Positions 3,498 to 17,230 of a stretch of 32,000 nucleotides of DNA are shown here, one piece after another; position 1 is the first letter of the stretch; each line of letters starts with the position of its first letter. Under the pieces are notes generated by a model. It was given only the letters and a program-made list of their open reading frames with translations. It searched no databases and was not told the DNA's origin. This DNA comes from Mycolicibacterium smegmatis (lineage in GTDB: Bacteria > Actinomycetota > Actinomycetes > Mycobacteriales > Mycobacteriaceae). The stretch covers positions 810,001 to 842,000 of the forward strand of contig NZ_LN831039.1 in NCBI RefSeq assembly GCF_001457595.1, read 5' to 3'. Position numbers and translations under genes: made by a program.

Positions 3498-6008
3498 TCA
3501 GCCTTGCGGGGAGAACATGGCCCGGAGCATCGACAGCATCTCGGACCGCGATTCCGCGCCCAACCGGCGGCGGATGCGGGCCACGTGGTGCTCCACGGTC
3601 TTTGCCGAGATGAACAGCTGGTTGCCGATGTCGCGGTACGGCATGCCGAGCAGCAACAACTCGGCCACCTCCCGCTCGCGGTCGGACAGGCGCGCGGACC
3701 CGGCCGGGGCACCGGCCTGCGTCGCCACCGGCGCCCGCGGCGTCTCCGGCGCCGACACGTCGTCGGCGGCCCCGGACTGTTTGAGATCGCGCGCCAACTG
3801 CAGCATCGCCTGCGACACCCGCGCATCTGAGGTCTGCAACGCGGCCTGACTCGCCAGGCGCGTGGCATCCCAGGTCAGCCCGAACTGCGCCAACCCGCGT
3901 GCGGCCGCCGCCACCTCGTCGACATCGACGTGATTGGCCAGCACCCGCAGCCAGGTCCGGCCCGCCCCGGCCAGCGCGCGGGCGAACGGGCTGTGGCCGG
4001 CCGCAGCGGTGAGCGCCTGTCCGTGCGGCGCCACCGCGCCCGGCGAGTTGGCGAGGATCCCCGCGTGCACGCCGGCCCAGTGCAACGGCATCGACCACAA
4101 CACGGGCTTGCCCAGCGCATCGAGCAGCCCGAACGCCTCGGCCAACGGGTGTTCGAGGCGGTCGATCCGGCGCATCCGGGCCGCGGCGACCCACAACTCG
4201 CCGAGCGGGAGCAGTGAATAGAGGTCGATCGAGTACTCGGCGAGCACCTCCATCGCGGCGAACCAGTGCCGCTGGATCGCGCCGCTGTCTCCGCTGCGCC
4301 GGGCGATCGCGGTGCGCAGCGCCGCGGCCCACAGCGCGTCGCGGCGGTGCAACGGCGGGCCCGACTCGACCGCGGACACGTCGGCGCCCGCGGCGGTCAG
4401 CTGACCGTCGAGCATCTTGACCCAGCCGAGCAGCAGCCGGTGGCGCGCAGCCCAGAAGGGTGCGGGCGGCGGTGTCCCGTTCTCGGCGCCGGGCGCCCCG
4501 GTCCGCACCGCGCGCCCGATCACGCTGCGCGCACGGACCGAGTCACCGCCGTGCAGCGCCGCCAGGGCCACCAGCGCCGCCGGGGTGTCAGGGCCGACAC
4601 TGTCGGTGTGCGGGTCGGCGGTGACGGCCTGCCCGAGCCGCGCGACCGTCGTCGTGAACGGTTGGTCCAGTGAGGCCACCAGGCCTTCGGCCAGGCTGCG
4701 GGCCGCGCGTGCGGCCGAGGTCGGCGGGCCGGACAGCTCGGTGTTCAGGGCGGCCCGCGCGGCTTCGGCGTCGCCCGCGGCGAGCAGCGCCACCGTGCCT
4801 GCCGAGCCGACCGCGGCATCCGGGTAGGGGCCGAGCCAGCGGAACAGGTCGGCGGCCTGAGCGGCGCTGCCGTCGTGCATCGCGATGCTCGCGGCGATGC
4901 GCACCGCGGCCGCGCGTTCGGCGGGGTCGTCGGAGCTGAGCAGGTCGTCGGCCATGCGGCCCGCCGTCGCGCAGTCACCCGACAACGCCAGCGCGTCGGC
5001 CAGTCGCGCGTTGAGCGCAGCCGAACCCGCACGTGCCGCGGCGCGGTACAACCGGGCCGCGCGCGCCGGCTGGCCCCGCACCTGAACCGCGTGATCGGTG
5101 AGTGCCGCGGCGAGCCGATCGTCGCGCACGCCGTGCTCGGCCAGCCGCACCGCGAGTTCCGGTGACAGCGTGGCCTTTTCGAGCTGCGAGTGCAGCAGTG
5201 CGATCTCGATGTCGTGGTGGCGTGACGTGCCTGCGATCTGCGCGACGCTGGTGTGCACCAGGCGCAGGAACCTCTTGTCGTAGGCCGGTTCGACCAGTCC
5301 GCCGGCCCTGGCGCGGTCCACGAGCACCGAGGCGTCGGTGCCGCTGACGCGCAGCGCGCCCGCGACGTCGTCGGGTCCGAGATCCAGGCTCAACGACGTG
5401 AGCAACAAGGTGTCGCGGGTCTGTTCGCCGAGATGGCGCACCCGTTCGATCAGGGCGTAGCGGGCGGCCTCCTCGGGTTCGGCGGCCGATGTGGCGACCG
5501 CCCGCACCAGAAACGGCAGGCCCGCGGTGACCGCGAGCACCGCGCGCACCGTGTCCGGCGGCGGCGGAGAACCCAGGGTGGCCGTCAGGAGGCGGCCGAC
5601 CTCGGCCGTCGACATCGGCCCCAGCGCCACGATCGGGTTCTCCCGCTCCAGCGCGGTCGCCAGGGCCCGCAGCACCGGCCGGTGTGCGAGCGGTTCGGCG
5701 GCGACCACCACGGTCGACGACGGATCGGTGGATCGCTCTGTCAGACAGTCGATCTCATCGTCGGCGAGATGATGCGCGTCGTCGATGACGAACACGGCGC
5801 CCTGATCGTCGTCGGGTCGCGGCGGCCGGGTGAGCACGGTGCGGCCCGCCTCGCGCAGCGTCGCCCGCACCGCCGCGAGCACGGTGCTCTTGCCCGTCCC
5901 GATCCCACCGGACACCAGCAGCTTCGCGGGTCGCGACGGTACCCCGGCGAGCATTTCCTGGACAGCCCGCGGCAGGTCGACCGCGTGTTCCGGTGCCGGG
6001 TTGGCCAT
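3498..6008 (-). CDS. iniR: Large ATP-binding LuxR-family (LAL/STAND-type) transcriptional regulator, Rv0339c/IniR-like
   Basis: 836 aa. N-terminal P-loop GGIGTGKST and Walker B-like VFVIDDAHH, a long Ala/Leu-rich helical-repeat middle, and a C-terminal LuxR HTH (LSDREREVAELLLLGMPYRDIGNQLFISAKTVEHHVARIRRRLG). Its position beside iniBAC matches Rv0339c. Confidence 0.85.
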   Translation of the reverse strand: MANPAPEHAVDLPRAVQEMLAGVPSRPAKLLVSGGIGTGKSTVLAAVRATLREAGRTVLTRPPRPDDDQGAVFVIDDAHHLADDEIDCLTERSTDPSSTVVVAAEPLAHRPVLRALATALERENPIVALGPMSTAEVGRLLTATLGSPPPPDTVRAVLAVTAGLPFLVRAVATSAAEPEEAARYALIERVRHLGEQTRDTLLLTSLSLDLGPDDVAGALRVSGTDASVLVDRARAGGLVEPAYDKRFLRLVHTSVAQIAGTSRHHDIEIALLHSQLEKATLSPELAVRLAEHGVRDDRLAAALTDHAVQVRGQPARAARLYRAAARAGSAALNARLADALALSGDCATAGRMADDLLSSDDPAERAAAVRIAASIAMHDGSAAQAADLFRWLGPYPDAAVGSAGTVALLAAGDAEAARAALNTELSGPPTSAARAARSLAEGLVASLDQPFTTTVARLGQAVTADPHTDSVGPDTPAALVALAALHGGDSVRARSVIGRAVRTGAPGAENGTPPPAPFWAARHRLLLGWVKMLDGQLTAAGADVSAVESGPPLHRRDALWAAALRTAIARRSGDSGAIQRHWFAAMEVLAEYSIDLYSLLPLGELWVAAARMRRIDRLEHPLAEAFGLLDALGKPVLWSMPLHWAGVHAGILANSPGAVAPHGQALTAAAGHSPFARALAGAGRTWLRVLANHVDVDEVAAAARGLAQFGLTWDATRLASQAALQTSDARVSQAMLQLARDLKQSGAADDVSAPETPRAPVATQAGAPAGSARLSDREREVAELLLLGMPYRDIGNQLFISAKTVEHHVARIRRRLGAESRSEMLSMLRAMFSPQG

Positions 6009-6022
6009 GACGGTCCGCCGCG

Positions 6023-7810
6023 TCAGGCGCCGCCGTCGTCGGGAACGTCAGGATCGTCCGGGACGTCGGGGATCTCGACCGTGGTGGTGGTGATCGGTGC
6101 CTGCGTGGTGGTCGGCGGCGCCGTGGTGGTCGGCGCTGTGGTCGTCGGCTGCGTGGTGGTGGTCCGCGTCGTCGTCGGTGTGGTCGTGGTGGTGGTCGTC
6201 GTGGTCGTGGTGGTCGTCGTCGTGGTGGTGGTCGTCGGACTGGTGGTCGACGTGGGCTCGGTCGTCGTGGTGGTGACCGGAGGCGGCACCACCACGGTCG
6301 TGGTCTGTTGCCCGTCGGGGCCGACCGTCACAGTGGTGACGGGCTCGGGCGGTGGACCTTCCGGTGACGGGCCCATGGAATAGGTGGTGCTGGTCTCGGT
6401 GACCGGCGTCGAGTCGCCGGACGTGCTGGTGAGCGTGACGGCAAGACCGCCCGCGGCCAGGAGCGCGGCCACCGCGGCCGCGCCGAACAGGATCGGCGGC
6501 CGCTTGTACCAGGGCAGCGGCGCGGGCCCGGCGTCGTACATCTCCTCTTCGTGGCTGAACTCCACGGGAGGCCGGGCCGCCGTCGCGCCCGCCTGCGTCT
6601 CGTAGTCGGGGCCGGCGTAGGGCACCGGCTCGCCCGCAGGCGCGTCGTCTTCCGACCAGGCCAACGCGCGGAACGTCGACGATTCCGGGCCGTCGGTTCC
6701 CGCGGCGCCTGCCGCCCCCAGCGCGGCCGTGGGGCCCAACCCGGTCGGCGCATCCGCGGCGGCCACCCCCGGTGCCAGGCCGGTGGGTGCCCCGGCGTCG
6801 ACGGCGCGGTCGGCGAGCAGTGCCGCGCCGGCCGCCGCGACAAGCTGTGGCTGCGGCGAGGTCACCACGGGTGCCCGCAGTCGCTCGGAAAGCCGTTGCG
6901 TCACATAAGGAATCGCCGCACCGCCGCCGACGGTCGCCACGGCCGTCACGCTGGACAGGGCGATGTTGTTGCGCTGCAGGGTGTCTTCGACCGCGTTGAG
7001 GAACCCGTCGAGCGGTGCGGAGATCAACTGTTCCAACTCGGGGCGGGTGACGCGGACCTCCGAGGTGTAGCCGGGCAGGTCGGCCGAGATCGTCGCAACG
7101 GTGTCAGCCGACAACGCCTCCTTGGCATTGCGGCAGTCGCTGCGCAGGTGGGCCAGCGAGCCCACCGCGGCGGTACCCGCCGGATCGGCGTCGTTCGCCG
7201 CGGCGATACCGGTGAGGACATGGTTGAGCAGCGCCTGGTCGATCTGGTCACCCGAGAACTCGGGGTAACGCACCGTCTGGCCGAGCGTCGCGTAATCCGC
7301 GGCGGCGTCGGCGAGTGTCACGCTGGTGCCGCTGCCACCGAAATCGCAGAGCACCACGACACCGTCGGCGGGAAGACCGGGGTCGGCCTTCAGGGCGGCC
7401 AACGCGGCCATCGAATCGGGAACCAGCGCGGCGGGGATGCCGTCGGGTGCGAATGCGGGCTTGTTGCGCAGCGCGCCGCGCAGCGCGCCCAACGCGGCGG
7501 GACCCCAGTAGGCGGGGGTCGCGATCGCGACGGGAGCGCCTCCGCCGACCTCGCGGGCCATCGCGTCGAGCGCCTCGGCGAGCGCCAATTCGCCACGGTG
7601 CTGCGAACCGTCGGCCGCCACGATCGGCACCGGATCGCCGGTACGCTCGACGAAGCCGGTGAGCGCCAGGCCGTCACCGCCGAGTTCGCCGACCTCCGGG
7701 GCGCGGTCGCGGTACAGATTGAGGATCGATCGGCGGACCACCGGTGCGCGGCCCTCACGGGCTGCCACCAGATTGGTTATTCCGATCGACAACCCCAGTG
7801 AGTCGGTCAT
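6023..7810 (-). CDS. Membrane-anchored Hsp70-NBD-like (actin-fold ATPase) protein with extracytoplasmic Thr/Pro-rich tail; paralogue 1
   Basis: 595 aa with AGGAG 9 nt upstream of the ATG. Hsp70-like motifs LGLSIGITNLVAA, VVLCDFGGSGTSVTLAD and VGGGAAIPYVTQRL align to the DnaK encoded in this window. There is no substrate-binding domain. An Ala/Pro linker is followed by PWYKR, a TM helix (PPILFGAAAVAALLAAGGLAVTL) and a Thr-rich tail. The stop lies 14 nt from the iniR start. Confidence 0.85.
   Translation of the reverse strand: MTDSLGLSIGITNLVAAREGRAPVVRRSILNLYRDRAPEVGELGGDGLALTGFVERTGDPVPIVAADGSQHRGELALAEALDAMAREVGGGAPVAIATPAYWGPAALGALRGALRNKPAFAPDGIPAALVPDSMAALAALKADPGLPADGVVVLCDFGGSGTSVTLADAAADYATLGQTVRYPEFSGDQIDQALLNHVLTGIAAANDADPAGTAAVGSLAHLRSDCRNAKEALSADTVATISADLPGYTSEVRVTRPELEQLISAPLDGFLNAVEDTLQRNNIALSSVTAVATVGGGAAIPYVTQRLSERLRAPVVTSPQPQLVAAAGAALLADRAVDAGAPTGLAPGVAAADAPTGLGPTAALGAAGAAGTDGPESSTFRALAWSEDDAPAGEPVPYAGPDYETQAGATAARPPVEFSHEEEMYDAGPAPLPWYKRPPILFGAAAVAALLAAGGLAVTLTSTSGDSTPVTETSTTYSMGPSPEGPPPEPVTTVTVGPDGQQTTTVVVPPPVTTTTTEPTSTTSPTTTTTTTTTTTTTTTTTTTPTTTRTTTTQPTTTAPTTTAPPTTTQAPITTTTVEIPDVPDDPDVPDDGGA
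6080..6300 (-). repeat. Thr-codon (ACC/ACG/ACA) low-complexity tract including 19 consecutive Thr codons
   Basis: Plus strand reads as (GGT/CGT)n at about 6179-6238. The protein reads TTTTTEPTSTTSP-T19-PTTTRTTTTQPTTTAPTTTAPPTTTQAPITTTT. Confidence 0.9.
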
Positions 7811-7878
7811 CAGGCGTCACTCCTGTGTTGTCTGGGCCGTCCTCACCTTAGCGGCTCGGACCTGCGCCGCCCGTGATT

Positions 7879-7925
7879 GATCCCCTAGTGGCGTCGATCC
7901 CCTAACGGCGCGTCCCCTAACGCGC
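7879..7925 (+). promoter_or_regulatory. Three direct copies of TCCCCTA[AG] in the divergent promoter region between the Hsp70-like/iniR operon and the first IniB-N gene
   Basis: GATCCCCTAG (7879-7888), GATCCCCTAA (7896-7905), CGTCCCCTAA (7911-7920). Each is followed by (T/C)GGCG or CGCGCC. Spacing is 17 and 15 bp. Confidence 0.45.
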
Positions 7926-8028
7926 CGCCGCCGGAGGTGGGTTCGGCACCGATTCCCGCCGCGGGGTTGCTGGATAGCATCGTCAGCGACAGCAGCCACC
8001 AGTGATCGACCAGCGAATGAGAGGTGTC

Positions 8029-8553
8029 ATGGCAAATACACTGCTCGATTTCGTCATGTCGCTGGTGCGTGATCCGGAGGCTGCGGCGCGCTATGCGGCC
8101 GACCCGGCGCAGGCCATCGCCGACGCCGATCTCAACGGCGTGACCAGTGTTGACGTCGACAACCTGATCCCTGTGGTGTCGGAGTCGCTGTCCGTCGGTG
8201 CGGCCACCGGGGGCCTCGACGCCTACGGCGCCGAACCGGCCGACAACGTCTGGGCATCCGGGGCCGCGACCGCGGCGTTCGACGCGTTCGGTGACCATGT
8301 GCCCTTCGAGACCGGAAGCGGTGGCCAGGTCATCCACGCGCCGGCCGATCCCGAACCGGCTGGGGCCGACGCACTGTCCGGGCCGGCCGAGGCGGTATCG
8401 GCGACAACCCCCGAGATCGACCCACCGGTCGTCGAACCCTTGCAGGTCGAAGACCCCGTGTTCGGTACCGACTGGGGGCAGCCCGTCATCCCCGAACACC
8501 CCGATATGGGGGATCATGGGGACGACCTCTCCGGGCTCGACATCTTCGACTGA
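8029..8553 (+). CDS. IniB N-terminal-domain protein with acidic C-terminus (Rv0340-like)
   Basis: ATG at 8029 is preceded by GAGAGG. The N-terminus MANTLLDFVMSLVRDPEAAARYAADPAQAIADADL parallels the IniB N-terminus MTSLIDFILDLFRSPASAAAFIADPDGSLRDAGL. Position matches Rv0340. The ORF track offers an earlier start at 8002 with no better RBS. Confidence 0.8.
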   Translation: MANTLLDFVMSLVRDPEAAARYAADPAQAIADADLNGVTSVDVDNLIPVVSESLSVGAATGGLDAYGAEPADNVWASGAATAAFDAFGDHVPFETGSGGQVIHAPADPEPAGADALSGPAEAVSATTPEIDPPVVEPLQVEDPVFGTDWGQPVIPEHPDMGDHGDDLSGLDIFD

Positions 8554-8579
8554 TCCGCCCGCCCTCAGCATTCACTGAA

Positions 8580-8620
8580 AAGACGCATGACCAGTTAGGT
8601 CATGCGTCTTTTTTGTTTTT
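8580..8620 (+). terminator. Canonical Rho-independent terminator (13-bp stem plus T-tract)
   Basis: aagacgcatgacc (8580-8592), loop agtta, ggtcatgcgtctt (8598-8610), followed by ttttttgttttttg. It lies 27 nt after the stop of the Rv0340-like CDS. Confidence 0.85.
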
Positions 8621-8639
8621 TGTGTTTGCTGATGCGATG

Positions 8640-8664
8640 CCCTAGTGACCCCCTAACCCCCTAA
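8640..8664 (+). promoter_or_regulatory. Second cluster of three CCCTA[AG] repeats, upstream of iniB
   Basis: CCCTAG (8640-8645), CCCCCTAA (8649-8656), CCCCCTAA (8657-8664). Same orientation relative to the downstream + strand gene as the 7879-7925 cluster. It lies about 170-195 nt upstream of the iniB ATG. Confidence 0.4.
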
Positions 8665-8834
8665 TGGGATCGGTGGCCCCACCCCGGGGCGGGCGGCGCG
8701 CACGAGGGGATCGAGCCCCGTTTCCGGGGGCTTCGCCGGTCCATAGCGTGGTGTGCAGATCGCCGGAGAGCCCGGCGGAGAACCTCACAAAGAACTCACG
8801 AGGACCTCCCAGAAACACCTGAAAGGTTGGAGCA

Positions 8835-9914
8835 ATGACCTCTCTGATCGACTTCATCCTCGACCTGTTCCGCAGCCCGGCCTCGGCGGCCGCATTCATC
8901 GCCGACCCGGACGGCAGCCTGCGCGATGCGGGCCTGCCCAACGTGACGGCCGCCCAGCTGCACGCCGTTGCGGCCACCGCGGCCCCTGCCGGTGTGCTGC
9001 TCGGCGGCGGCAACCCGGTCGTGGGCCTGCAGCGCGCGGTCGCCGACCACCACAACATCCCCGCTCAGTTCGCGGCGCCGATCGCCTCGCCGTTCTCGCC
9101 GCAGACCCAGTTCGCGCCGGAGGTGGCCAGCCACAACAACACCGATCTGGCGAGCCACAACAACACCCCGATCATGAGCCCCAACCAGGACGCCGGCGCC
9201 AACGCGCAACAGGGTGCGTTCAACCTGGGCTTCGGTGACATCACCCTGGGCAACAAGACCACGAACACCGCCACCAACGGCGGCGTGGTGGTCGACGGGG
9301 ACAACGCCGGTGACATCGTCAGCGGTGACGGCGCGGTCCTGGGTGACGGCAACACCACCAACAACGGCGACATCCTGGCCGGCGCCGGGTCCAACGTCGC
9401 GGTGGGCAAGGACAACGACATCGAGGACAACTCGCAGACCGCGGGCGGTGACCTGATCTCGGGCAACGACGGCCCGGTCATCAGCGACGTCGACATGAGC
9501 GGCGGCCACGGTGGCGGTGCCAGCGGCGGTGACAGCCTGATCGGGATCGGCAGCGGCGGCGCGTCCGGCGGTGACGGAGGCAACGGCGGGTCGATCATCC
9601 TGACCGACGCCAGCTCCAACTACGTCGGCGGCGACCAGACCTCGGTCGGTGGCGACTGGGGCAGCGACAACACGCAGGACAACTCGGTGAGCTCCGCGGT
9701 GGAGTACGACACCCACACCAGCTACACGGACAACTCGTCGACCTACGAGTCGAGCATCGGTTCGGGCAACCAGACCGCGATCGCCTCGGGCAACGAGACC
9801 GCGTTCGGATCGGGCAACGAGACCAACACCGCGCTGGCCTCGGGCAACAGCTACGACACGACCGACATCGACACCAACGTCGCGTCGCCCAGCCTCGAGC
9901 TCGACGCGTTCTGA
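8835..9914 (+). CDS. iniB: IniB (isoniazid-inducible protein B-like): IniB-N domain plus Gly/Asn/Asp/Thr-rich repetitive region
   Basis: 359 aa with GAAAGG/GGAG upstream of the ATG. The N-terminal domain is shared with the 8029-8553 product. It sits immediately upstream of iniA as in M. tuberculosis. No signal peptide or TM segment. Confidence 0.85.
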   Translation: MTSLIDFILDLFRSPASAAAFIADPDGSLRDAGLPNVTAAQLHAVAATAAPAGVLLGGGNPVVGLQRAVADHHNIPAQFAAPIASPFSPQTQFAPEVASHNNTDLASHNNTPIMSPNQDAGANAQQGAFNLGFGDITLGNKTTNTATNGGVVVDGDNAGDIVSGDGAVLGDGNTTNNGDILAGAGSNVAVGKDNDIEDNSQTAGGDLISGNDGPVISDVDMSGGHGGGASGGDSLIGIGSGGASGGDGGNGGSIILTDASSNYVGGDQTSVGGDWGSDNTQDNSVSSAVEYDTHTSYTDNSSTYESSIGSGNQTAIASGNETAFGSGNETNTALASGNSYDTTDIDTNVASPSLELDAF

Positions 9915-9927
9915 GACCAGCACCCCC

Positions 9928-9957
9928 GCGGGGGCCACCCGAAGTGGTGGCCCCCGC
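9928..9957 (+). other. GC-rich hairpin in the iniB-iniA spacer (possible attenuator or RNA-stability element)
   Basis: gcgggggccacc (9928-9939) is the exact reverse complement of ggtggcccccgc (9946-9957), loop cgaagt. No downstream T-tract. Confidence 0.5.
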
Positions 9958-10001
9958 TCGGTGCGTATGCCTACCGTTGACGTCTGCAGGAGGGAAGCTT
10001 C

Positions 10002-11891
10002 ATGACGCAGCCCAGTGATCCGGGGGCGGCCGGCGGGCCGGCCAGTCCGGTTTCGGCCGGCGGGCCGGCCAGACCTGTCAAGGTGATCGTCGAGCTCATC
10101 GACCACACCAGCGCCATCGCCGCCGCCAAGGACCGCGCCGACCTGGTGGAACGGCTGCGTGCCGCGAAGGCCAGGATCAGCGATCCGCAGATCCGCGTCG
10201 TCATCGCCGGGCAGCTCAAGCAGGGCAAGAGCCAGCTGCTCAACTCGCTGCTCAACATCCCGGTGGCGCGCGTCGGTGACGACGAGAGCACCGTGCTCGC
10301 GACCGTGGTGTCCTACGGCGAGCAGGCCTCGGCGCGACTGGTGGTGGCCCGTCCCGACGGCGCCGAACCCGAACTGATCGAGATCCCGCCGTCCGAGGTC
10401 ACCACCGATTTGCGCCGGGCACCGCAGGCCAGTGGCCGCCAGGTGCTGCGCGTCGAGGTCACCGCGCCGAGCCCGCTGCTCAAAGGTGGCCTGGCGTTCG
10501 TCGACACCCCCGGTGTGGGCGGACACGGCCAACCCCACCTGTCGGCGACGCTGGGTCTGCTGCCCGACGCCGACGCCATGCTGATGATCAGCGACACCAG
10601 CCAGGAGTTCACCGAGCCGGAGATGAAGTTCATCCGGCAGGCCCTCGAGATCTGCCCGGTGGCCGCGATCGTCGCGACCAAGACCGACCTGTACCCGCAC
10701 TGGCGCCAGATCGTCGACGCCAACATCGCGCACCTGCAGCGGGCCGGGCTCAACGTCCCGGTGATCCCGGCGTCGTCGGTGCTGCGCAGCCACGCGATCT
10801 CGCTCAACGACAAGGAACTCAACGAGGAATCGAACTTCCCGGCGATCGTGAAGTTCCTCTCCGAGCATGTGCTGTCCCGGCAGAACGACCGTATCCGCGA
10901 CCAGATCGTCGATGAGATCCGTTCAGCGGCAGAACATCTGCTGCTGGCCGTGGAATCGGAACTGTCATCGTTCAACGACCCGGGGGAGCGGGAACGCCTC
11001 ACCGCCGAGTTGGAGCGACGCAAGCAGGAGGCCCAGGATGCGTTGCAGCAGACCGCGTTGTGGCAGCAGGTGCTCAGCGACGGCATCGCCGATCTGACCG
11101 CCGACGTCGACCACGACCTGCGGCACCGGTTCCGCATCATCGCCGCACACACCGAAAAGGTGATCGACGGTTGCGATCCCACGCTGCACTGGGCCGAGAT
11201 CGGCGCCGAACTCGAGGACGCGGTCGCCACGGCGGCCGGGGACAACTTCGTATGGGCCTATCAACGCGCCGAGGCGCTGGCGGCCGAGGTGGCGCGGACC
11301 TTCACCGAGGCCGGTCTGGATGCGGTTCAGATGCCGCAGATCGACGCGCGTGACATGGGAGCGGGCTTCGGGGAACTGAATTCACTGGCGCGACTTGAGG
11401 CCAAGCCGATCAAGATCGGCCACAAGGTGGTCACCGGGATGCGTGGCTCGTACGGCGGCGTGCTGATGTTCGGCATGCTGACCTCGTTCGCGGGTCTGGG
11501 CATGTTCAACCCGTTGTCGCTCGGCGCGGGTTTCGTGCTGGGGCGCAAGGCCTACAAGGAGGACATGGAGAACCGCATGCTGCGCGTGCGCAACGAGGCC
11601 AAGGCCAACGTGCGCAAGTTCGTCGACGACGTGGCGTTCGTCGTCGGCAAGGAGTCCCGCGACAGGCTCAAGGGCATCCAGCGCCAGTTGCGCGACCACT
11701 ACCGCGAGATCGCGAACCAGACCACGCGCTCGCTCAACGAGTCACTGCAAGCTGCGATCGCCGCCGCGAAAGTCGAGGAAGCCGAACGCAATACGCGTGT
11801 CAAGGAACTCGAGCGCCAGCAGAACATCCTCAAGCAGGTGGTCGACCACGCCGCCAAACTCGCGCAGGACCCGGCACCGAGTACGGCCTGA
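10002..11891 (+). CDS. iniA: Dynamin-like GTPase IniA
   Basis: 629 aa with AGGAGGG upstream of the ATG. G1 GQLKQGKSQLLNSLL, G3 FVDTPGVGG, G4 ATKTD. Long helical stalk and a Gly-rich hydrophobic paddle GMRGSYGGVLMFGMLTSFAGLGMFNPLSLGAGFVLG (nt 11436-11543). Confidence 0.92.
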   Translation: MTQPSDPGAAGGPASPVSAGGPARPVKVIVELIDHTSAIAAAKDRADLVERLRAAKARISDPQIRVVIAGQLKQGKSQLLNSLLNIPVARVGDDESTVLATVVSYGEQASARLVVARPDGAEPELIEIPPSEVTTDLRRAPQASGRQVLRVEVTAPSPLLKGGLAFVDTPGVGGHGQPHLSATLGLLPDADAMLMISDTSQEFTEPEMKFIRQALEICPVAAIVATKTDLYPHWRQIVDANIAHLQRAGLNVPVIPASSVLRSHAISLNDKELNEESNFPAIVKFLSEHVLSRQNDRIRDQIVDEIRSAAEHLLLAVESELSSFNDPGERERLTAELERRKQEAQDALQQTALWQQVLSDGIADLTADVDHDLRHRFRIIAAHTEKVIDGCDPTLHWAEIGAELEDAVATAAGDNFVWAYQRAEALAAEVARTFTEAGLDAVQMPQIDARDMGAGFGELNSLARLEAKPIKIGHKVVTGMRGSYGGVLMFGMLTSFAGLGMFNPLSLGAGFVLGRKAYKEDMENRMLRVRNEAKANVRKFVDDVAFVVGKESRDRLKGIQRQLRDHYREIANQTTRSLNESLQAAIAAAKVEEAERNTRVKELERQQNILKQVVDHAAKLAQDPAPSTA

Positions 11892-11895
11892 ACAC

Positions 11896-12237
11896 TCAGT
11901 GCCGGCGGCGCCACAGCACGACGCCGACCACGACGGCGAGCACCCCGACCGCGATGGGGATCACGGGCTTGACCGCGCCCCGGTCATCGGTGAGCGCATC
12001 GCGCGTCGCGGCCTGCGCGGTGTGCGCCTTCTCGGCGACACGCTCCTTGGTCTCGGCGGCCTTGTCGTGGGCGCGGGCCTTGACGTCGGTCTTGGCTGCC
12101 AGGGCCTCCACGGTCTGTCCGAGTTCGTCGCGGGTCTTCTCGATGTCGGCCTGGATCTCGGCCACCCCGGCGTCGGGACCTGGTTCGGGTCGCAGATTCG
12201 TGGGCTTGTCGGTGTTGTCGGTGTTTTCACTGGCCAT
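11896..12237 (-). CDS. DUF3618-type tail-anchored membrane protein (coiled-coil N-domain, C-terminal TM; YqjD/ElaB-like architecture)
   Basis: 113 aa. Contains VAEIQADIEKTRDELGQTVEALAAKTDVKARAHDKAAETKERV followed by the C-terminal helix VIPIAVGVLAVVVGVVLW-RRRH. Its ATG at 12237 overlaps the upstream gene by 11 nt. Confidence 0.75.
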   Translation of the reverse strand: MASENTDNTDKPTNLRPEPGPDAGVAEIQADIEKTRDELGQTVEALAAKTDVKARAHDKAAETKERVAEKAHTAQAATRDALTDDRGAVKPVIPIAVGVLAVVVGVVLWRRRH

Positions 12238-12640
12238 GGCGACCTGTCCTCACTTCGTCCTGGACCTCGTGGATGTCCTGTTTGACGTTGGCGACCGTCA
12301 TCTCGGGGGTCGGTGACGCCTGATCGATCTGCTTCTTGCTGATCAGAGCGGTGATCCCGGCGATCGCGAACAGGACGACCGCGACGATCAGCGCCGCGGC
12401 CCACACCGGAAGTGCCAAGGCCAGCGCGGCGATCGCCGCGGTCACCACACCGGCGAGACCGAACACCGCGATCAGTCCCGCGGCGCTGAACAGGCCCGCG
12501 CCGATGCCGGCATGCTTGGCCGACTCGGTGAATTCTTTTTGCGCCAAACGCATCTCGTCGCGGACCAGCCGCGAGGTCTGTGCCGATAGCTGGCTCATCA
12601 GTTCGCCGATCGGCGTGTCGACAGTGGGTTTCGGTTGCAT
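12227..12640 (-). CDS. Holin-X / DUF1469 (YqjE-like) two-TM membrane protein
   Basis: Two adjacent hydrophobic helices (GIGAGLFSAAGLIAVFGLAGVVTAAIAAL, LPVWAAALIVAVVLFAIAGITAL) after an amphipathic N-terminus (LVRDEMRLAQKEFTESAKH). The start is taken at ATG 12640 (MQPKPTVD...); the ORF track allows 12682. Confidence 0.7.
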   Translation of the reverse strand: MQPKPTVDTPIGELMSQLSAQTSRLVRDEMRLAQKEFTESAKHAGIGAGLFSAAGLIAVFGLAGVVTAAIAALALALPVWAAALIVAVVLFAIAGITALISKKQIDQASPTPEMTVANVKQDIHEVQDEVRTGRHGQ

Positions 12641-12809
12641 CTCTCGTCTCGCTTCGTCTCGCCTCGCACGAACAGCCGTCACGCTGCACTGCCGGCAGGC
12701 TTCCCGGCGGTGCCGGTGATCAAACCGTCGGGCCCGCGTTGGAGGGGCGACCCACGACCTAAGCTCGAAGAGTTAACCGCCGGTCGTTGGAAAGGTTGGA
12801 CTCCGCAGC

Positions 12810-14303
12810 GTGAGCACGGGGGATCAGGTGCGCGCGATCCTGCGCGGCACCGTCCAGGCATATCGTGGCGATCCGGCATACCGTCACCGCCCCGACGTGC
12901 ACAACGAGCTCGAGCGCATCGGGTGGCAGCTCAACCAGCCGATCCGCATCGCGTTGGCAGGCACACTCAAAGCCGGCAAGTCGACGCTGGTCAACGCGCT
13001 GCTCGGCGAGGAAATCGCCCCGACTGATGCCACGGAGGCCACCCGGATCGTCACGTGGTTCCGGCACGGCCCGACGCCCAAGGTGACCGCCAACCACCGC
13101 GGCGGCCGGCGGTTCAACGTTCCGATCGTGCGCGACCCCCACGACCGCGGCCTGACGTTCCGCTTCGACGGCCTGGACCCCGGCGAGATCCTGGACCTGG
13201 ACGTCGAGTGGCCCGCCGTCGAACTCATCGACACCACGATCATCGACACCCCGGGGACGTCGTCGCTGTCGCAGGACGTCTCCGAACGCACCTACCGGTT
13301 GCTGGTGCCCGACGACGGCGTGCCCCGCGTCGACGCCGTGGTGTTCTTGCTGCGCACCCTCAACGCCGCCGACATCGCGCTGCTCAAGCAGATCGGCGAA
13401 CTCGTCGGTGGCTCGTCCGGGGCGCTCGGCGTCATCGGCGTCGCGTCGCGCGCCGACGAGATCGGGGCGGGCCGCATCGACGCGATGATGTCGGCGAAGG
13501 ACGTCGCCAAGCGGTTCACCGCCGAGATGGACAAGACCGGCATCTGCCAGGCCGTCGTGCCGGTGTCCGGGCTGCTCGCGGTGACCGCCCGCACGCTGCG
13601 GCAGAGCGAGTTCGTCGCGCTCGAGAAGCTGGCCGGTGTCGACCCGGCCGAACTGGCCAAGGCCATGCTGTCGGTCGACCGCTTCGTCCGAGAGGACAGC
13701 GCACTGCCCGTGGATGCCGCGACGCGGGCGGCGCTGCTGGACCGGTTCGGCATGTTCGGGATCCGGATCTCGATCGCGGTGCTGCGCGCCGGGGTGTCCG
13801 ATTCGGTGGCGCTGGCCGACGAACTGCTCGAACGCAGCGGCCTGATCGCGCTGCGCGACGTCATCGACCAGCAGTTCGCGCAGCGGTCGGAGCTGCTCAA
13901 GGCCCACACCGCCCTGCTTTCGTTGCGGCAGTTCGTGCAGCACAACCCCATCTACGCGACGCCCTACATCCTGGCTGACATCGAACCGCTGCTGGCCGAC
14001 ACCCATGCGTTCGAGGAACTGCGGCTGCTGAGCCAGCTGAGGTCACGTCCGACCACGCTCAACGAGGACGAGATGGCCTCGCTGCGCCGCATCATCGGCG
14101 GCTCGGGCACCGACGCCGCGAGTCGTCTCGGCCTGACCCCCGACGCGCCGTACGACGGACCGCGTGCGGCGTTCGCGGCCGCGCAGCGCTGGCGACGACG
14201 TGCCGAGCATCCGCTGAACGATCCGTTCACCACCCGCGCGTGCCGGGCCGCGGTGCGCAGCGCCGAGGCGCTGGTCGCCGAATACGCCGCGCGTCAGCGC
14301 TGA
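12810..14303 (+). CDS. iniC: Dynamin-like GTPase IniC
   Basis: 497 aa with a GTG start and GGAAAGG upstream. G1 GTLKAGKSTLVNALLG, G3 IDTPGTSS, G4 ASRAD. Helical C-terminal half with no long hydrophobic paddle. Confidence 0.9.
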   Translation: MSTGDQVRAILRGTVQAYRGDPAYRHRPDVHNELERIGWQLNQPIRIALAGTLKAGKSTLVNALLGEEIAPTDATEATRIVTWFRHGPTPKVTANHRGGRRFNVPIVRDPHDRGLTFRFDGLDPGEILDLDVEWPAVELIDTTIIDTPGTSSLSQDVSERTYRLLVPDDGVPRVDAVVFLLRTLNAADIALLKQIGELVGGSSGALGVIGVASRADEIGAGRIDAMMSAKDVAKRFTAEMDKTGICQAVVPVSGLLAVTARTLRQSEFVALEKLAGVDPAELAKAMLSVDRFVREDSALPVDAATRAALLDRFGMFGIRISIAVLRAGVSDSVALADELLERSGLIALRDVIDQQFAQRSELLKAHTALLSLRQFVQHNPIYATPYILADIEPLLADTHAFEELRLLSQLRSRPTTLNEDEMASLRRIIGGSGTDAASRLGLTPDAPYDGPRAAFAAAQRWRRRAEHPLNDPFTTRACRAAVRSAEALVAEYAARQR

Positions 14304-14358
14304 CAGGCCGGATGACCGGCCGGCTTAACGAATCGGGCCCGTCCGACGACATACGGGT

Positions 14359-16209
14359 ATGCGTGATTGCCTGGGGTTGTCCGTCGGGACGACGAACCTG
14401 GTGGCAGTCGCCGACCAGTCGCCGGTGATCCGGCGTGCGGTCCTGACGTTGTTCCCACATCGCGGACCCGAGGTCGGTGGGCCACCGGACGGAAGTGCCT
14501 GCGACGGGCTGACCATCTCCGACTTCGTCGCGCGTGTCGGCGACCCGGTGCCGCTGATCGCGGCCGACGGATCCGCCCACCGTGCCGAGCAACTGCTGGC
14601 AGCTGCCGTGGGGGCGATGGGCCGGCTGGCGGCGCCGGGCCGCCACCCCGAGAACCAGGTGGTGGCGGTCCCGGCGCACTGGCACCCGGCGGCCTTCGAC
14701 GCGGTCCGGGCCGCGATGCCCGGTGTCCGCGTGGTGTCCGACGCCGTGGCGTCCTTGACCGCGATCCAGACGTACCCCGGTCTGCCGGCACGCGGGATCG
14801 TCGCGTTGTGCGATTTCGGGGCGACGGGTACCAGCCTCACCCTGGCCGACGCCGCGCGTGGGTTCGCCCCACTGGCCACGGTCCGCCACGAGGACTTCTC
14901 GGGAGACCTGATCGACCAGGAGATCTTGCGCCGTGTCCTGGCCGATCTGGACGCCGAACCCGCGGGCACCGCGGCGGTTTCGACACTGGCCGCCTTGCGC
15001 GAGCAGTGCCGGTCGGCCAAGGAGCGCCTGAGCTACGAGGCGGCCACCGGTCTGGCCGGGCCCGGCAACACCATGCGGCTGACCCGTGCCGACGTGGAAG
15101 CCGTTGTCGCGCAGCCGCTCAGCGGCGTGATCGACGCGTTGCACGACCTGCTGCGCCGCAACGGCGTGCACCCGGCCCAGCTCGCGGCGTTGGTGACCGT
15201 CGGCGGCGGGGCACGCATTCCCGTTGTCACACAACGGCTCTCCGAGGAATTCCGGATGCCGGTGACCACCGTGGTGCAGTCGCAGGTGATCGCCGCGACC
15301 GGCGCCGCGCTGCTGGCACACCGCGGCGAAGACCAGACCGTGACCCGCCGCGTCATCCCGCCCGCAACCGAGCCGGCTTCCGCGACAGAAGCTGTCGCCA
15401 CCACGGGATGGGCGCCGCCCCTGGCGTGGTCGGCGGCCGACGAGAGTGATGAGGCTGCTGGTCCTGAGGTTCCCACCGCGAGTTCGGCGCGGCCCGATCT
15501 GATCTTCGCCGAGCCGCCCGAGGCCGCGCCGGAGCCTGCGCGGCCGTGGTACCGGCGCGGTGGGGTGGTGTTCTACGCCGCGCTGTTCCTGGCCGTCGTC
15601 GGAACCGCCGGCCTGGTCTACTCCGTGCGCGCCGACCGGTTGGATGCGGCGGCGGCGAGCACACCGCTCGCGCCGCAGACCGTGCCCGCCGAATCCCCAC
15701 TGGCGCAATCGCTGCCCGCACCGCCGACCCGCACCGTGGTGGTCCAGGATCCGGGAGCACCCGCGGCGCCCGCGCAGGCTGCCCCGCGCCCGGCCGCTGC
15801 GCCGCGCCTGGTGCAGAGCGGGCAGGTGGCCCCGCAGGCCGCACCCCGGCAGGCGCCACGAGTCGCGGCCCCAGCACCTGCGCCTGCCCCTGCACCGGCG
15901 GCGCCCCCACTGCAATGGCCGGTACTGCCGCGGCTGCCGATCCCGACGTTCGTGCTTCCCGCTGCGCCGTCGTCGGCGCCTGAGCCCACTGCTACGGCGT
16001 CACCCACACCAGAGCCCACCGCGGAGCCGGAGCCGACGCAGGAGCCCGGCCCCACTCAGGCGCCGCAGCCCTCGGCCGAACCGACGGCCTCACCCGAACC
16101 GACGGTGTCACCGATCTCTGATCCGGAACCGACGGCGCAACTCGAGCCCGAACCAGAGCCCGAGCCTGCTCCGGAGACGTCCACGCCGCCGGTGGAGCCG
16201 GCGGAGTAG
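14359..16209 (+). CDS. Membrane-anchored Hsp70-NBD-like protein with Pro/Ala/Glu/Thr-rich tail; paralogue 2
   Basis: 616 aa. Colinear with the 6023-7810 product over the first 330 or so aa (LGLSVGTTNLVAV, ALCDFGATGTSLTLAD, VGGGARIPVVTQRLSEEF). Then PWYRR (15544-15558), a TM helix GGVVFYAALFLAVVGTAGLVY and a Pro-rich tail with PEPT repeats. It starts 55 nt after the iniC stop on the same strand. Confidence 0.85.
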   Translation: MRDCLGLSVGTTNLVAVADQSPVIRRAVLTLFPHRGPEVGGPPDGSACDGLTISDFVARVGDPVPLIAADGSAHRAEQLLAAAVGAMGRLAAPGRHPENQVVAVPAHWHPAAFDAVRAAMPGVRVVSDAVASLTAIQTYPGLPARGIVALCDFGATGTSLTLADAARGFAPLATVRHEDFSGDLIDQEILRRVLADLDAEPAGTAAVSTLAALREQCRSAKERLSYEAATGLAGPGNTMRLTRADVEAVVAQPLSGVIDALHDLLRRNGVHPAQLAALVTVGGGARIPVVTQRLSEEFRMPVTTVVQSQVIAATGAALLAHRGEDQTVTRRVIPPATEPASATEAVATTGWAPPLAWSAADESDEAAGPEVPTASSARPDLIFAEPPEAAPEPARPWYRRGGVVFYAALFLAVVGTAGLVYSVRADRLDAAAASTPLAPQTVPAESPLAQSLPAPPTRTVVVQDPGAPAAPAQAAPRPAAAPRLVQSGQVAPQAAPRQAPRVAAPAPAPAPAPAAPPLQWPVLPRLPIPTFVLPAAPSSAPEPTATASPTPEPTAEPEPTQEPGPTQAPQPSAEPTASPEPTVSPISDPEPTAQLEPEPEPEPAPETSTPPVEPAE

Positions 16210-16221
16210 ACGCGGCAGCCG

Positions 16222-16734
16222 TCAGGGCTGCTCGCCGCCCTCTTCCTCCGGGACCGTCGTGGTCTCGGTGACCGTGGACGTCACCACCGACGTGCTGGTC
16301 TCGACGGTTGTCGAGGTCGTCGGGGGCGCGGTGGTCGTGGTGGTGGTGGTCGGCGGGGTCGTCGTCGCCGTCTCGGTGACCGTGGTCTGCGCAGGCGTCG
16401 AGGTCTCGGTCACCGTCCGTGTCGGCACCGGGGCGACCGGGGCGACCTGCGATGTGGTGACCGGGGTGGTCGACGTCGTGCTGGTGGTGGTCGACGTCGT
16501 CGACGACGAGTCATCCGACGAGAACAACTGGATCACCGCGTAGATCACCAGAGCGACGATCAGCGCACCGAGTGCACCCAGGCCGACGAGCGCGGCGGGT
16601 TTGCGGTACCACGGAACGGGTTCGGGAGCCGGCGGTTGGTCGGGCGGCGGGTACGCCCCATAATCGGCCCCGTAGTCGCCGCCGTAGCTGTGGGCGTACT
16701 GGGTGGGCTCGTCGTCGGAGTAGTTGTTCGCCAC
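16222..16734 (-). CDS. Single-pass membrane protein with Thr/Ser-rich extracytoplasmic tail
   Basis: 170 aa with a GTG start. Tyr/Gly/Asp/Pro-rich N-terminus, PWYRK (16600-16614), TM helix AALVGLGALGALIVALVIYAVI, then a tail rich in TTST/TVTET repeats. The Thr codons are predominantly ACC/ACG. Confidence 0.7.
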   Translation of the reverse strand: MANNYSDDEPTQYAHSYGGDYGADYGAYPPPDQPPAPEPVPWYRKPAALVGLGALGALIVALVIYAVIQLFSSDDSSSTTSTTTSTTSTTPVTTSQVAPVAPVPTRTVTETSTPAQTTVTETATTTPPTTTTTTTAPPTTSTTVETSTSVVTSTVTETTTVPEEEGGEQP

Positions 16735-16753
16735 GCGCCGATAGTAGGTGGCC

Positions 16754-17230
16754 TCAGTTGCCGGGGGCGGGATACAGGGTGCGTGTCACGTTGGTGCGCG
16801 GCCGGTTCCGTGACGTCGACGTCTCGCCGTCGTCGTCACTGGTCTGCGACCGGGTTCGTGGCGGGGTCCGGGGAGCCGACGACTCCGACGTGGTCTCCTC
16901 GCCCTCCGACGGTGGCGTCTCCGTCCCCGATGGGTCGGCGCCTTCCGGAGGAAGACCGATATCGGTGGTCGCCGGCGGGCTGGTGCTGGTGATCGTCGAC
17001 GTCGTGGACGACGTCGTGCTCGACGTGGTCGACGCGTACGTCGGCTCTACGAAATCGAGGGGCGCCTGCTGAGGGTTCTCGGCGCCGCTCGTGAGCGCCA
17101 CAACACCCCACACCACCAGTGCGATGACCGCCAGCGCGGCCACGCTGGCGCCGAGGACCGCAGGTGTCGAGTGATGCCAGGGCGCCTCGGTTGTCTGCCC
17201 TTGCCGATCTCGGTCTGCGGTCACGCGCAC
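16754..17230 (-). CDS. Single-pass membrane protein with Ser/Thr-rich tail
   Basis: 158 aa with a GTG start (start uncertain). PWHH (17171-17182) then TM helix AVLGASVAALAVIALVVWGVVAL, then STTSSTTSSTTSTITSTS and an acidic/Ser-rich tail. There is a 19-nt gap to the downstream 170-aa gene. Confidence 0.6.
   Translation of the reverse strand: MRVTADRDRQGQTTEAPWHHSTPAVLGASVAALAVIALVVWGVVALTSGAENPQQAPLDFVEPTYASTTSSTTSSTTSTITSTSPPATTDIGLPPEGADPSGTETPPSEGEETTSESSAPRTPPRTRSQTSDDDGETSTSRNRPRTNVTRTLYPAPGN

Follow-up and report, generated by a model that had tools for sequence, protein, structure and literature searches.

Organization of the ini envelope-stress locus of Mycolicibacterium smegmatis: candidate IniR boxes, two membrane-anchored Hsp70-like proteins and an antisense SigF cassette

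The ini locus of Mycolicibacterium smegmatis was analyzed in a 32-kb stretch of DNA (contig NZ_LN831039.1, positions 810,001 to 842,000; hereafter the window), with emphasis on the genes that accompany the regulator IniR and the dynamin-like GTPases IniA and IniC. The iniBAC genes are a classic reporter of mycobacterial cell-wall drug stress, and IniA and IniC are the best-studied actinobacterial dynamins. The iniBAC locus of M. tuberculosis is known from work of Alland in 1998-2000. All eleven genes of the region (Table 1) have the content and essentially the positions proposed in the initial annotation. Each is backed by a third-position GC content of 0.79-0.93 in its proposed frame, and family matches agree with this. 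Locus tags were assigned by counting back from dnaK, which we take to be MSMEG_0709; this gives MSMEG_0690 for EtfD and MSMEG_0691-0701 for the locus itself, the last two probably belonging to ST1 and ST2. Published uses of the tags are consistent with the mapping. In M. smegmatis CP080273.1 the gene lengths are identical, with 99.1% nucleotide identity to the window over 20.4 kb.

Table 1. Genes and control elements of the ini region, in window coordinates.
Feature	Position	Strand	Description
iniR (MSMEG_0691)	3498..6008	-	STAND ATPase with LuxR helix-turn-helix; NF038181 equivalog, 1414.6 bits (cut-off 750)
HL1 (MSMEG_0692)	6023..7810	-	Hsp70 nucleotide-binding-domain-like; partial PF00012 match, E 9.5e-17
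Divergent control region HL1/Rv0340	7845..7980		-10-like elements, three direct CCCCTA(A/G) repeats, GGGTTCGGCACCGAT block
-10-like TAAGGT for HL1	7845-7850	-	Conserved
CCCCTA(A/G) cores, HL1/Rv0340 region	7883, 7900, 7915	+	Direct repeats, spaced 17 + 15 bp
Block GGGTTCGGCACCGAT	7939-7953		Columns at least 90% conserved
-10-like TAGCAT for Rv0340-like gene	7975-7980	+	Conserved
Rv0340-family IniB-related protein, 'iniB*' (MSMEG_0693)	8029..8553	+	NF038176, 197 bits (cut-off 100)
Terminator-like hairpin	8577..8613	+	16-bp stem and T-run directly 3' of Rv0340-like gene; partly conserved across species
iniB promoter region	8640..8749	+	CCCCTA(A/G) boxes at 8640, 8651, 8659
Inverted box GAGGGGA	8704-8710		In iniB promoter region
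Near-palindrome CCCCGTTTCCGGGG	8716-8729		Between iniB boxes and -10-like element; at least 90% conserved, 57 species
-10-like TAGCGT for iniB	8744-8749	+
IniB-like protein (MSMEG_0694)	8835..9914	+	NF038175 IniB N-terminal domain, 71.7 bits (cut-off 40); PF27122 IniB
iniA (MSMEG_0695)	10002..11891	+	Bacterial dynamin-like GTPase; PDB 6j72 at 1286.8 bits
DUF3618 protein (MSMEG_0696)	11896..12237	-	Tail-anchored, 'alanine-rich'; PF12277, E 8.8e-15; second cassette gene
Holin-X protein (MSMEG_0697)	12227..12640	-	YqjE-like membrane protein; PF07332, E 3e-35; first cassette gene
SigF-type promoter	12701..12725	-	GTTT-N16-GGGAA, 61 nt upstream of Holin-X ATG
Junction relic	12759-12812	+	Ancestral iniA stop/iniA-iniC junction and iniC ribosome-binding site; right edge of insertion
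iniC (MSMEG_0698)	12810..14303	+	Second dynamin-like GTPase; Dynamin_N 40.6 bits
HL2 (MSMEG_0699)	14359..16209	+	HL1 paralogue, Pro/Ala-rich tail; partial PF00012 match, E 5e-15
ST1 (probably MSMEG_0700)	16222..16734	-	YSDDEPTQY...PWYRKP, transmembrane helix, Ser/Thr tail
ST2 (probably MSMEG_0701)	16754..17230	-	PWHH, transmembrane helix, Ser/Thr-rich tail

The core of the region is the ini locus, in line with the initial assignment. It comprises an IniR regulator, Rv0340/IniB-N proteins upstream of iniA, and IniA and IniC as tandem dynamins. IniR carries a GerE helix-turn-helix at residues 773-827, and MSMEG_0691 has been given as the Rv0339 counterpart, IniR (PMC13494985). It has been shown that IniR activates iniBAC and gives a chromatin immunoprecipitation peak upstream of iniBAC, for which no motif was defined (Boot et al. 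2017, PMC5760070). The IniB_NTERM model also matches the Rv0340-like protein (70 bits, cut-off 40). The IniB-like protein MSMEG_0694 (359 aa) occupies the iniB position, and its body is repetitive and rich in Gly, Asn, Ser and Asp. Its clear IniB N-terminal domain contrasts with the statement that iniB is lacking in M. smegmatis (Boot 2017, PMC5760070). The IniA of the window is the crystallized M. smegmatis protein, as seen from its match to PDB 6j72. Dynamin_N is matched by IniA at 51 bits and by IniC at the score in Table 1, both above the cut-off of 27, and MSMEG_0698 carries the name IniC in PMC5656591. A terminator scan of the window returned sites no commoner than chance, except for the strong hairpin after the Rv0340-like gene, which suggests that this gene forms a transcription unit apart from iniB-iniA or that an attenuation point lies here. 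The sigma-70 promoter scan of the window gave no match, as expected at such a GC content. An open reading frame at 7885-8571 on the reverse strand (228 aa) was rejected as a gene; it has no family match and is a high-GC antisense shadow of the Rv0340-like gene.

For comparison with other species, an IniA-seeded scan with one genome per species was carried out. Of the more than 476 iniA relatives detected, the 80 closest loci, all Mycolicibacterium-like with IniA 78-89% identical, were compared by running all window proteins against them with tblastn. The 80 loci hold no slow grower and no non-mycobacterial member; the comparison with slow growers rests on the neighbourhoods of Rv0312-type genes and on Boot 2017. 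As recognized initially, two paralogous membrane-anchored proteins with an Hsp70-type nucleotide-binding domain (NBD), HL1 and HL2, bracket the core. Both match PF00012, and they share about 48% identity in the NBD. HL1 is located between iniR and the Rv0340-like gene, and divergent from the latter, in all 67 loci that cover this position. The gap from the HL1 stop to the iniR start measures 14 bp in the window and has a median of 8 bp (61 loci), and HL1 is the putative first gene of an HL1-iniR operon. HL2 follows iniC in 43 of 68 loci, 55 bp downstream in the window and at a median distance of 30 bp, and no terminator was predicted between the two genes in the window scan. HL2 is apparently the last gene of the iniC transcription unit. 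The co-transcription that had been suggested for both pairs agrees with these tight and conserved gaps. In a more distant genome, with an HL1 that is 60% identical, the order HL1-iniR-EtfD is kept and the IniB proteins and dynamins are divergent from HL1; HL2 was not found in this genome.

That the accessory genes have no assigned function was correctly stated in the initial annotation. The claim that they go beyond what has been described holds only in part, as a 'dnaK-like gene' at the ini locus was mentioned, in one sentence only, by Boot et al. 2017 (PMC5760070). Published data sets also contain both HL genes. The MSMEG_0699 transcript is induced when the galactan is shortened (Justen et al. 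2020, PMC7494350), strong induction of MSMEG_0699 by envelope perturbation is on record (PMC7494350, PMC8525676), and its product is among the top up-regulated envelope proteins after sublethal rifampicin. MSMEG_0692 was recovered in the FhaA interactome. The published likeness of MSMEG_0699 to RcsF was not reproduced: no RcsF family was found at E<=0.01 in Pfam and NCBIfam scans, and the protein has no lipobox.

The pair of dynamin genes had also led to the suggestion of a role in phage defence. A dynamin-based anti-phage system of the Eleos (LeoA/LeoBC) kind, with membrane proteins as accessories, would be in keeping with the matches of IniA to PADLOC LeoBC (45 bits, E 2e-12, spanning most of that model) and of IniC to LeoA (32 bits, at the P-loop). 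However, these matches are weak and at the superfamily level, and the accessory proteins give only chance-level matches. In more than 80 genomes the locus keeps a fixed core synteny, with EtfD on one side and the dnaK operon on the other, and it is not a variable island; in addition, its regulator and inducers are cell-wall stress signals. Due to the weak PADLOC matches and the fixed synteny the phage-defence reading was rejected, and we regard it as exceedingly improbable.

The two intergenic regions upstream of HL1/Rv0340 and iniB share a short repeat, CCCCTA(A/G). In the HL1/Rv0340 region its three copies read GATCCCCTAGTGGCG, GATCCCCTAACGGCG and TCCCCTAACG. A search with TCCCCTARYG, allowing at most one mismatch, gave six matches in the window, all of them in the HL1/Rv0340 region or upstream of iniB. 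Across 69 loci, one per species, the density of CCCTA[AG] amounts to 13.7/kb and 7.7/kb in these two regions versus 0.065/kb elsewhere on both strands. This corresponds to a more than 100-fold enrichment at the two ini promoter regions, always on the forward strand. The three boxes of the HL1/Rv0340 region keep their fixed spacing of 17 and 15 bp in essentially all 69 loci. In an alignment of 57 species the boxes, the GGGTTCGGCACCGAT block and the -10-like elements TAAGGT, TAGCAT and TAGCGT are at least 90% conserved, and boxes are present as well in the more distant species L085 and M. goodii. Boxes upstream of the HL gene are absent from the iniR-less metagenome-assembled genome L087, which has no three-box cluster, and from Rv0312-type loci. 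No boxes were found upstream of iniC, HL2 or ST1/ST2 in the window, and only sporadic clusters occur at these positions in a few other species. We propose that the CCCCTA(A/G) repeats are candidate IniR boxes, presumably bound by IniR and serving both divergent promoters. Boxes serving both promoters would place HL1-iniR under autoregulation. A further regulator, for instance a repressor, could bind at the near-palindrome in the iniB promoter region.

The iniA and iniC genes of M. smegmatis are separated by two antisense genes that encode the Holin-X and DUF3618 proteins. The proposed start of the Holin-X gene at 12640 is borne out by the length of the protein, which has 137 aa as in NCBI and is 99% identical to the M. 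smegmatis protein P0121, and by the SigF-type promoter 61 nt upstream. This promoter is the sole match to GTTT-N15-17-GGG(A/T)A in the 32-kb window. Expression of MSMEG_0696/0697 has been reported to depend on SigF, and a GTTT-N16-GGGAA promoter was placed 58 nt upstream of MSMEG_0697 (PMC4694148). By tblastn the DUF3618/Holin-X pair was detected in none of the 80 other Mycolicibacterium ini loci, and it lies inside the ini locus only in M. smegmatis and M. goodii. The cassette of M. mageritense is located elsewhere in the genome, together with a DUF4235 gene, and in M. thermoresistibile the pair adjoins genes for a ribosome hibernation factor and Usp proteins. The SigF promoter is kept in the copies of M. 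goodii and M. mageritense. Directly upstream of iniC a relic of the form CTAAGCTCGArGAGTTAACCGCCGG...GTG aligns with the iniA-iniC junction of M. wolinskyi, M. houstonense and Mycobacterium sp. 21AC1 (L003). The survival of this ancestral junction shows that a cassette of ~870 bp was inserted into the 3' end of iniA. The SigF cassette is a general-stress unit that was inserted antisense in the smegmatis/goodii lineage, and it is not an ini component. In M. smegmatis its antisense, convergently transcribed genes would cut off iniC-HL2 from the iniB promoter.

The iniA-iniC junction is an insertion hot spot in other species. The M. peregrinum group (L016-L018, ~11800-12540) has a small antisense membrane protein at this junction. 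The inserts in L033 (3151-3708), L058 (13791-15103) and L043 (11806-13500) consist of one or two extra IniB-N genes or a TnpB-like transposase, and L058 also has an apparent duplicated iniA 3' fragment. The description of the M. smegmatis cassette as a YqjD/YqjE-like pair was not upheld. Membership in the YqjD/ElaB/YgaM-YqjE family was rejected (PRK10132, 18.3 bits versus a cut-off of 157, E 0.003), and Pfam assigns the proteins to DUF3618 and Holin-X, not DUF883. The relation to YqjD/YqjE is an architectural analogy only.

ST1 and ST2 have no family match in the scans, and both are conserved across species in their N-terminal segment and transmembrane helix. The N-terminus of ST1 (YSDDEPTQY...PEPVPWYRKP and transmembrane helix) aligns with the linker and transmembrane region of HL1 (AWSEDD...EPVPY...PLPWYKRPP and transmembrane helix). 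This local alignment has a z score of 9.5, and none of 300 composition-preserving shuffles reached its score; ST1 and ST2 align with a z score of 9.4. The ST1 motif is conserved in 50 of 50 orthologues. The alignment together with the motif conservation indicates that ST1 and ST2 are NBD-less relatives of the HL anchor module. In the window, ST1 and ST2 are separated by 19 bp, and 34 bp lie between the LLM gene and ST2, with all three genes co-oriented. In the 80 loci the ST1/ST2 matches adjoin the LLM gene irrespective of the presence of HL2. Judged from this arrangement, ST2-ST1 are probably co-transcribed with the TIGR03085/LLM operon rather than with the ini genes. The strand calls for ST1/ST2 differ between gene sets: open reading frames of 94-104 aa on the opposite strand are given in Logan and ENA (L081/L083, 5569-6382) and proteins of 156/171 aa in NCBI (L082, 5414-6419). 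Third-position GC and cross-species conservation favour the ST1/ST2 frames.

The flanks of the window read as the Rv0338c...Rv0353 order of M. tuberculosis. Upstream lies an EtfD-like Fe-S/CCG reductase at the Rv0338c position. Downstream follow an F420 LLM oxidoreductase, TIGR03085, an MFS transporter, RraA-like genes, a LysR regulator and a full-length DnaK, and the open reading frames 3' of dnaK have the sizes expected for grpE, dnaJ and hspR.

The initial annotation had interpreted all eleven genes as one co-regulated, 13.7-kb machine for envelope remodelling that combines dynamins, actin-fold switches, a YqjD/YqjE-like pair and stalk proteins. The dense packing of the genes, the membrane anchors of all accessory products and the juxtamembrane module common to the four stalk proteins agree with this view. 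However, the Holin-X/DUF3618 pair is missing from 80 of 80 related loci, has a SigF promoter of its own and resides on an identifiable insertion. ST2-ST1 lie on the other strand, in the same orientation as the LLM operon, and have no box clusters; about a third of the species have no HL2. A single machine is very improbable.

The HL proteins were also analyzed for their architecture and fold. HL1 consists of an Hsp70-NBD-like part (residues 1-340), a disordered linker with an invariant LAWS motif, a WYKR motif and transmembrane helix at ~440-466, and a Thr/Pro-rich extracytoplasmic tail. In the AlphaFold2 model residues 1-340 have a pLDDT >90, residues 342-430 are disordered and a helix is formed at 440-453. 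Foldseek searches with the HL1 NBD returned DnaK/Hsp70 NBDs only (E about 1e-20, TM-score 0.7-0.78 normalised to the target). The NCBIfam DnaK/HscA models give the HL proteins 40-55 bits, with cut-offs of 620-822. Neither a substrate-binding domain nor a lid was found in the HL proteins, as the Pfam match spans the NBD part of the model only and the predicted disorder of residues 342-430 is followed by the transmembrane helix. Aligned with the window DnaK at about 20% identity, HL1, HL2 and Rv0312-type proteins show the exchanges Asp8 to Ser, Lys70 to Glu and Glu171 to Asp, and the HL proteins keep Asp194 and the Gly-rich phosphate and adenosine loops. From established Hsp70 enzymology, these substitutions predict nucleotide binding with poor hydrolysis.

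An exhaustive profile search for the HL family yielded 303 cluster representatives at E<=1e-30, and the named ones all belong to Mycobacteriaceae. The order of NBD (~340 aa), linker (~100 aa), WY[KR]R, one strongly hydrophobic helix and Pro/Thr-rich tail (~100-260 aa) was found in most full-length representatives, and the extracytoplasmic Pro/Thr-rich stalk of the HL proteins comprises 130-200 aa. Among 81 aligned HL sequences 30 columns are invariant; L383-A-W-S386 and Y403, both located in the linker, are among them. MSMEG_0692 is entered as the Rv0312 counterpart in PMC11898655, and Rv0312 itself is essentially unstudied in the literature. HL1/HL2 and the Rv0312 type are probably paralogues rather than orthologues. 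The family comprises at least three lineages (iniR-linked, iniC-linked and Rv0312-type), of which the ini-linked copies are a fast-grower feature. Three slow-grower loci (L088, 16078-17484; L089, 12155-13579; L090, 12134-13546) have a ~470-aa DUF7159 protein 3' of the Rv0312-type gene; PF23717 faintly matches some HL proteins, and the DUF7159 protein may be a further divergent HL relative. The metagenomic protein P0249 (980 aa) has a ~350-aa N-terminal extension before its HL NBD at residues 354-700.

With moderate confidence, we interpret the region as an ini envelope-stress locus that is a mosaic of three units: the IniR core with the HL proteins, the SigF cassette and ST2-ST1. The gene identities, conservation, spacing, repeats, insertion and fold are established, and we infer the operon structure, the binding of IniR to the boxes and a sensor or adaptor role of the HL proteins. 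The HL proteins would be membrane-anchored nucleotide-binding adaptors, not chaperones, through which the cytoplasmic Ini machinery could be linked to the condition of the envelope or periplasm. The site of action would be close to IniR for HL1 and close to the IniA/IniC dynamins for HL2, and the CCCCTA(A/G) repeats ahead of HL1-iniR, the Rv0340-like gene and iniB would be IniR boxes in a MalT-like direct-repeat arrangement. As accessory components of the ini system in fast growers, HL1 and HL2 are credible though uncharacterised, and a role as adaptor or sensor has a modest probability.

Alternatively, the association might be synteny by descent only, with HL1, HL2, ST1 and ST2 as general envelope proteins of the Rv0312 family that have no tie to IniR, IniA or IniC. 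Several observations weigh against the adaptor interpretation, and a number of them favour this one. All comparative loci belong to one genus-level clade, and in the 80 loci the flanking EtfD and LLM genes are as syntenic as the accessory genes. As EtfD and LLM are unrelated to the system, position alone is weak evidence within this clade. HL2 is missing from 25 of 68 loci and thus dispensable in these species. No boxes lie upstream of iniC, and the M. smegmatis cassette stands between iniC-HL2 and the iniB promoter. The metagenome-assembled genome GCA_936402805.1 (L087, 10001-11809) has an HL1-like gene between ST-like/LLM genes and EtfD, and neither iniR nor iniBAC was found near it; this arrangement may reflect a clean loss of the ini core or its relocation. 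In M. riyadhense, M. shimoidei and M. botniense the HL member is located beside YkuD, SnoaL, DUF7159 and Rv0313_N genes, and no dynamins or ini genes are found next to these Rv0312-type genes. Slow growers run IniR/iniBAC without an adjoining HL gene (Boot 2017, PMC5760070). The partner with which MSMEG_0692 was pulled down is FhaA, a cell-elongation protein, and not an Ini protein, and the Lys70-to-Glu assignment depends on an alignment at low identity.

However, the very short, conserved and co-oriented gaps of the HL genes are more telling than position. Two paralogues are each placed in operon-like fashion with an ini gene, at median distances of 8 and 30 bp. The control region of HL1 shares the boxes that also precede iniB, and these boxes vanish where iniR is absent. 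Moreover, envelope insults of the class that induces iniBAC also induce HL2. Synteny by descent only is therefore possible but rather doubtful. A more specific form of the adaptor interpretation is that HL1 is the membrane sensor of the IniR pathway in fast-growing mycobacteria: its Pro/Thr-rich stalk, probably O-mannosylated, would read the condition of the periplasm or cell wall, and its NBD, impaired in hydrolysis, and its LAWS linker would hold IniR at the membrane or release it, and IniR would act through the boxes. With the same module HL2 would position IniA/IniC at the damaged membrane, and ST1/ST2 would be NBD-less competitors or partners. Taken as a whole, this scenario is unlikely.

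Within the literature searched, three features appear to be new: the candidate IniR box, the putative operon of HL1 and iniR, and the splitting of iniA from iniC by an insertion. The conserved candidate box at both ini promoters provides a handle on the regulon in a model organism. Further handles are the putative HL1-iniR operon, which puts a membrane-anchored Hsp70-fold protein beside the regulator in every fast grower examined, and the iniC-linked paralogue HL2, which is induced by envelope stress according to published data. If true, the sensor reading would describe the first case of a transmembrane signalling adaptor with an Hsp70 fold that is tied to bacterial dynamins. As the antisense SigF cassette parts iniA from iniC, M. 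smegmatis is no simple proxy for the ini operon of M. tuberculosis.

The ini loci of M. tuberculosis and M. marinum (PMC5760070; PMC6715688) share the order and orientation of IniR, Rv0340-like, IniB-N, IniA and IniC with the locus described here, as well as the flanks, EtfD (Rv0338c) and, further downstream, the dnaK operon. The fast-grower locus differs by HL1 between iniR and Rv0340 and by HL2 after iniC, and that of M. smegmatis also by the antisense SigF cassette between iniA and iniC. The Rv0312 type has the Hsp70-like NBD, LAWS linker, single transmembrane helix and Pro/Thr-rich tail in common with the HL proteins, with identities of about 46% to HL1 and 42% to HL2. Its genes are located in the Rv0309-Rv0313 neighbourhood without dynamins or IniR, a context that differs from that of the ini HL genes. 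Canonical Hsp70 proteins (DnaK, HscA) and Ssz1, an atypical non-hydrolysing Hsp70, share the NBD fold and the glycine-rich phosphate and adenosine loops with the HL proteins. Unlike DnaK and HscA, the HL proteins are membrane-anchored with an extracytoplasmic tail, lack a substrate-binding domain and lid, and have Asp8 and Lys70 replaced. For MSMEG_0699, a role as a periplasm sensor of the RcsF type was proposed by Justen et al. 2020 (PMC7494350). The idea of an envelope-spanning, Pro-rich tether that reports on the periplasm or envelope is common to both, but HL2 resides in the inner membrane with its N-terminus, an Hsp70-like NBD, in the cytoplasm, and is not an outer-membrane lipoprotein. 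The E. coli yqjD/yqjE genes (ElaB/YgaM family), which encode stationary-phase membrane proteins, likewise pair two small proteins, a tail-anchored coiled-coil protein and a polytopic membrane protein, and a sigma factor of the general stress response controls both: RpoS in E. coli and SigF in M. smegmatis.

In the MalT regulon of E. coli, a STAND activator binds asymmetric boxes in direct repeat, and such boxes also occupy the control region between the divergent malE and malK genes. A sensor domain resembling that of MalT is present in IniR (Boot 2017, PMC5760070). The candidate IniR boxes resemble MalT boxes in being short and asymmetric, with a G-rich strand (TTAGGGGAT), and in their arrangement as direct repeats upstream of the -35 position, and they occur in a divergent control region as in malE/malK. 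Their sequence and their spacing of 15-17 bp are unlike those of MalT boxes. Holding and release of IniR by HL1 can be likened to the action of MalK on MalT and of DnaK on HspR, and it is pure conjecture that HL1 might regulate IniR as MalK regulates MalT.

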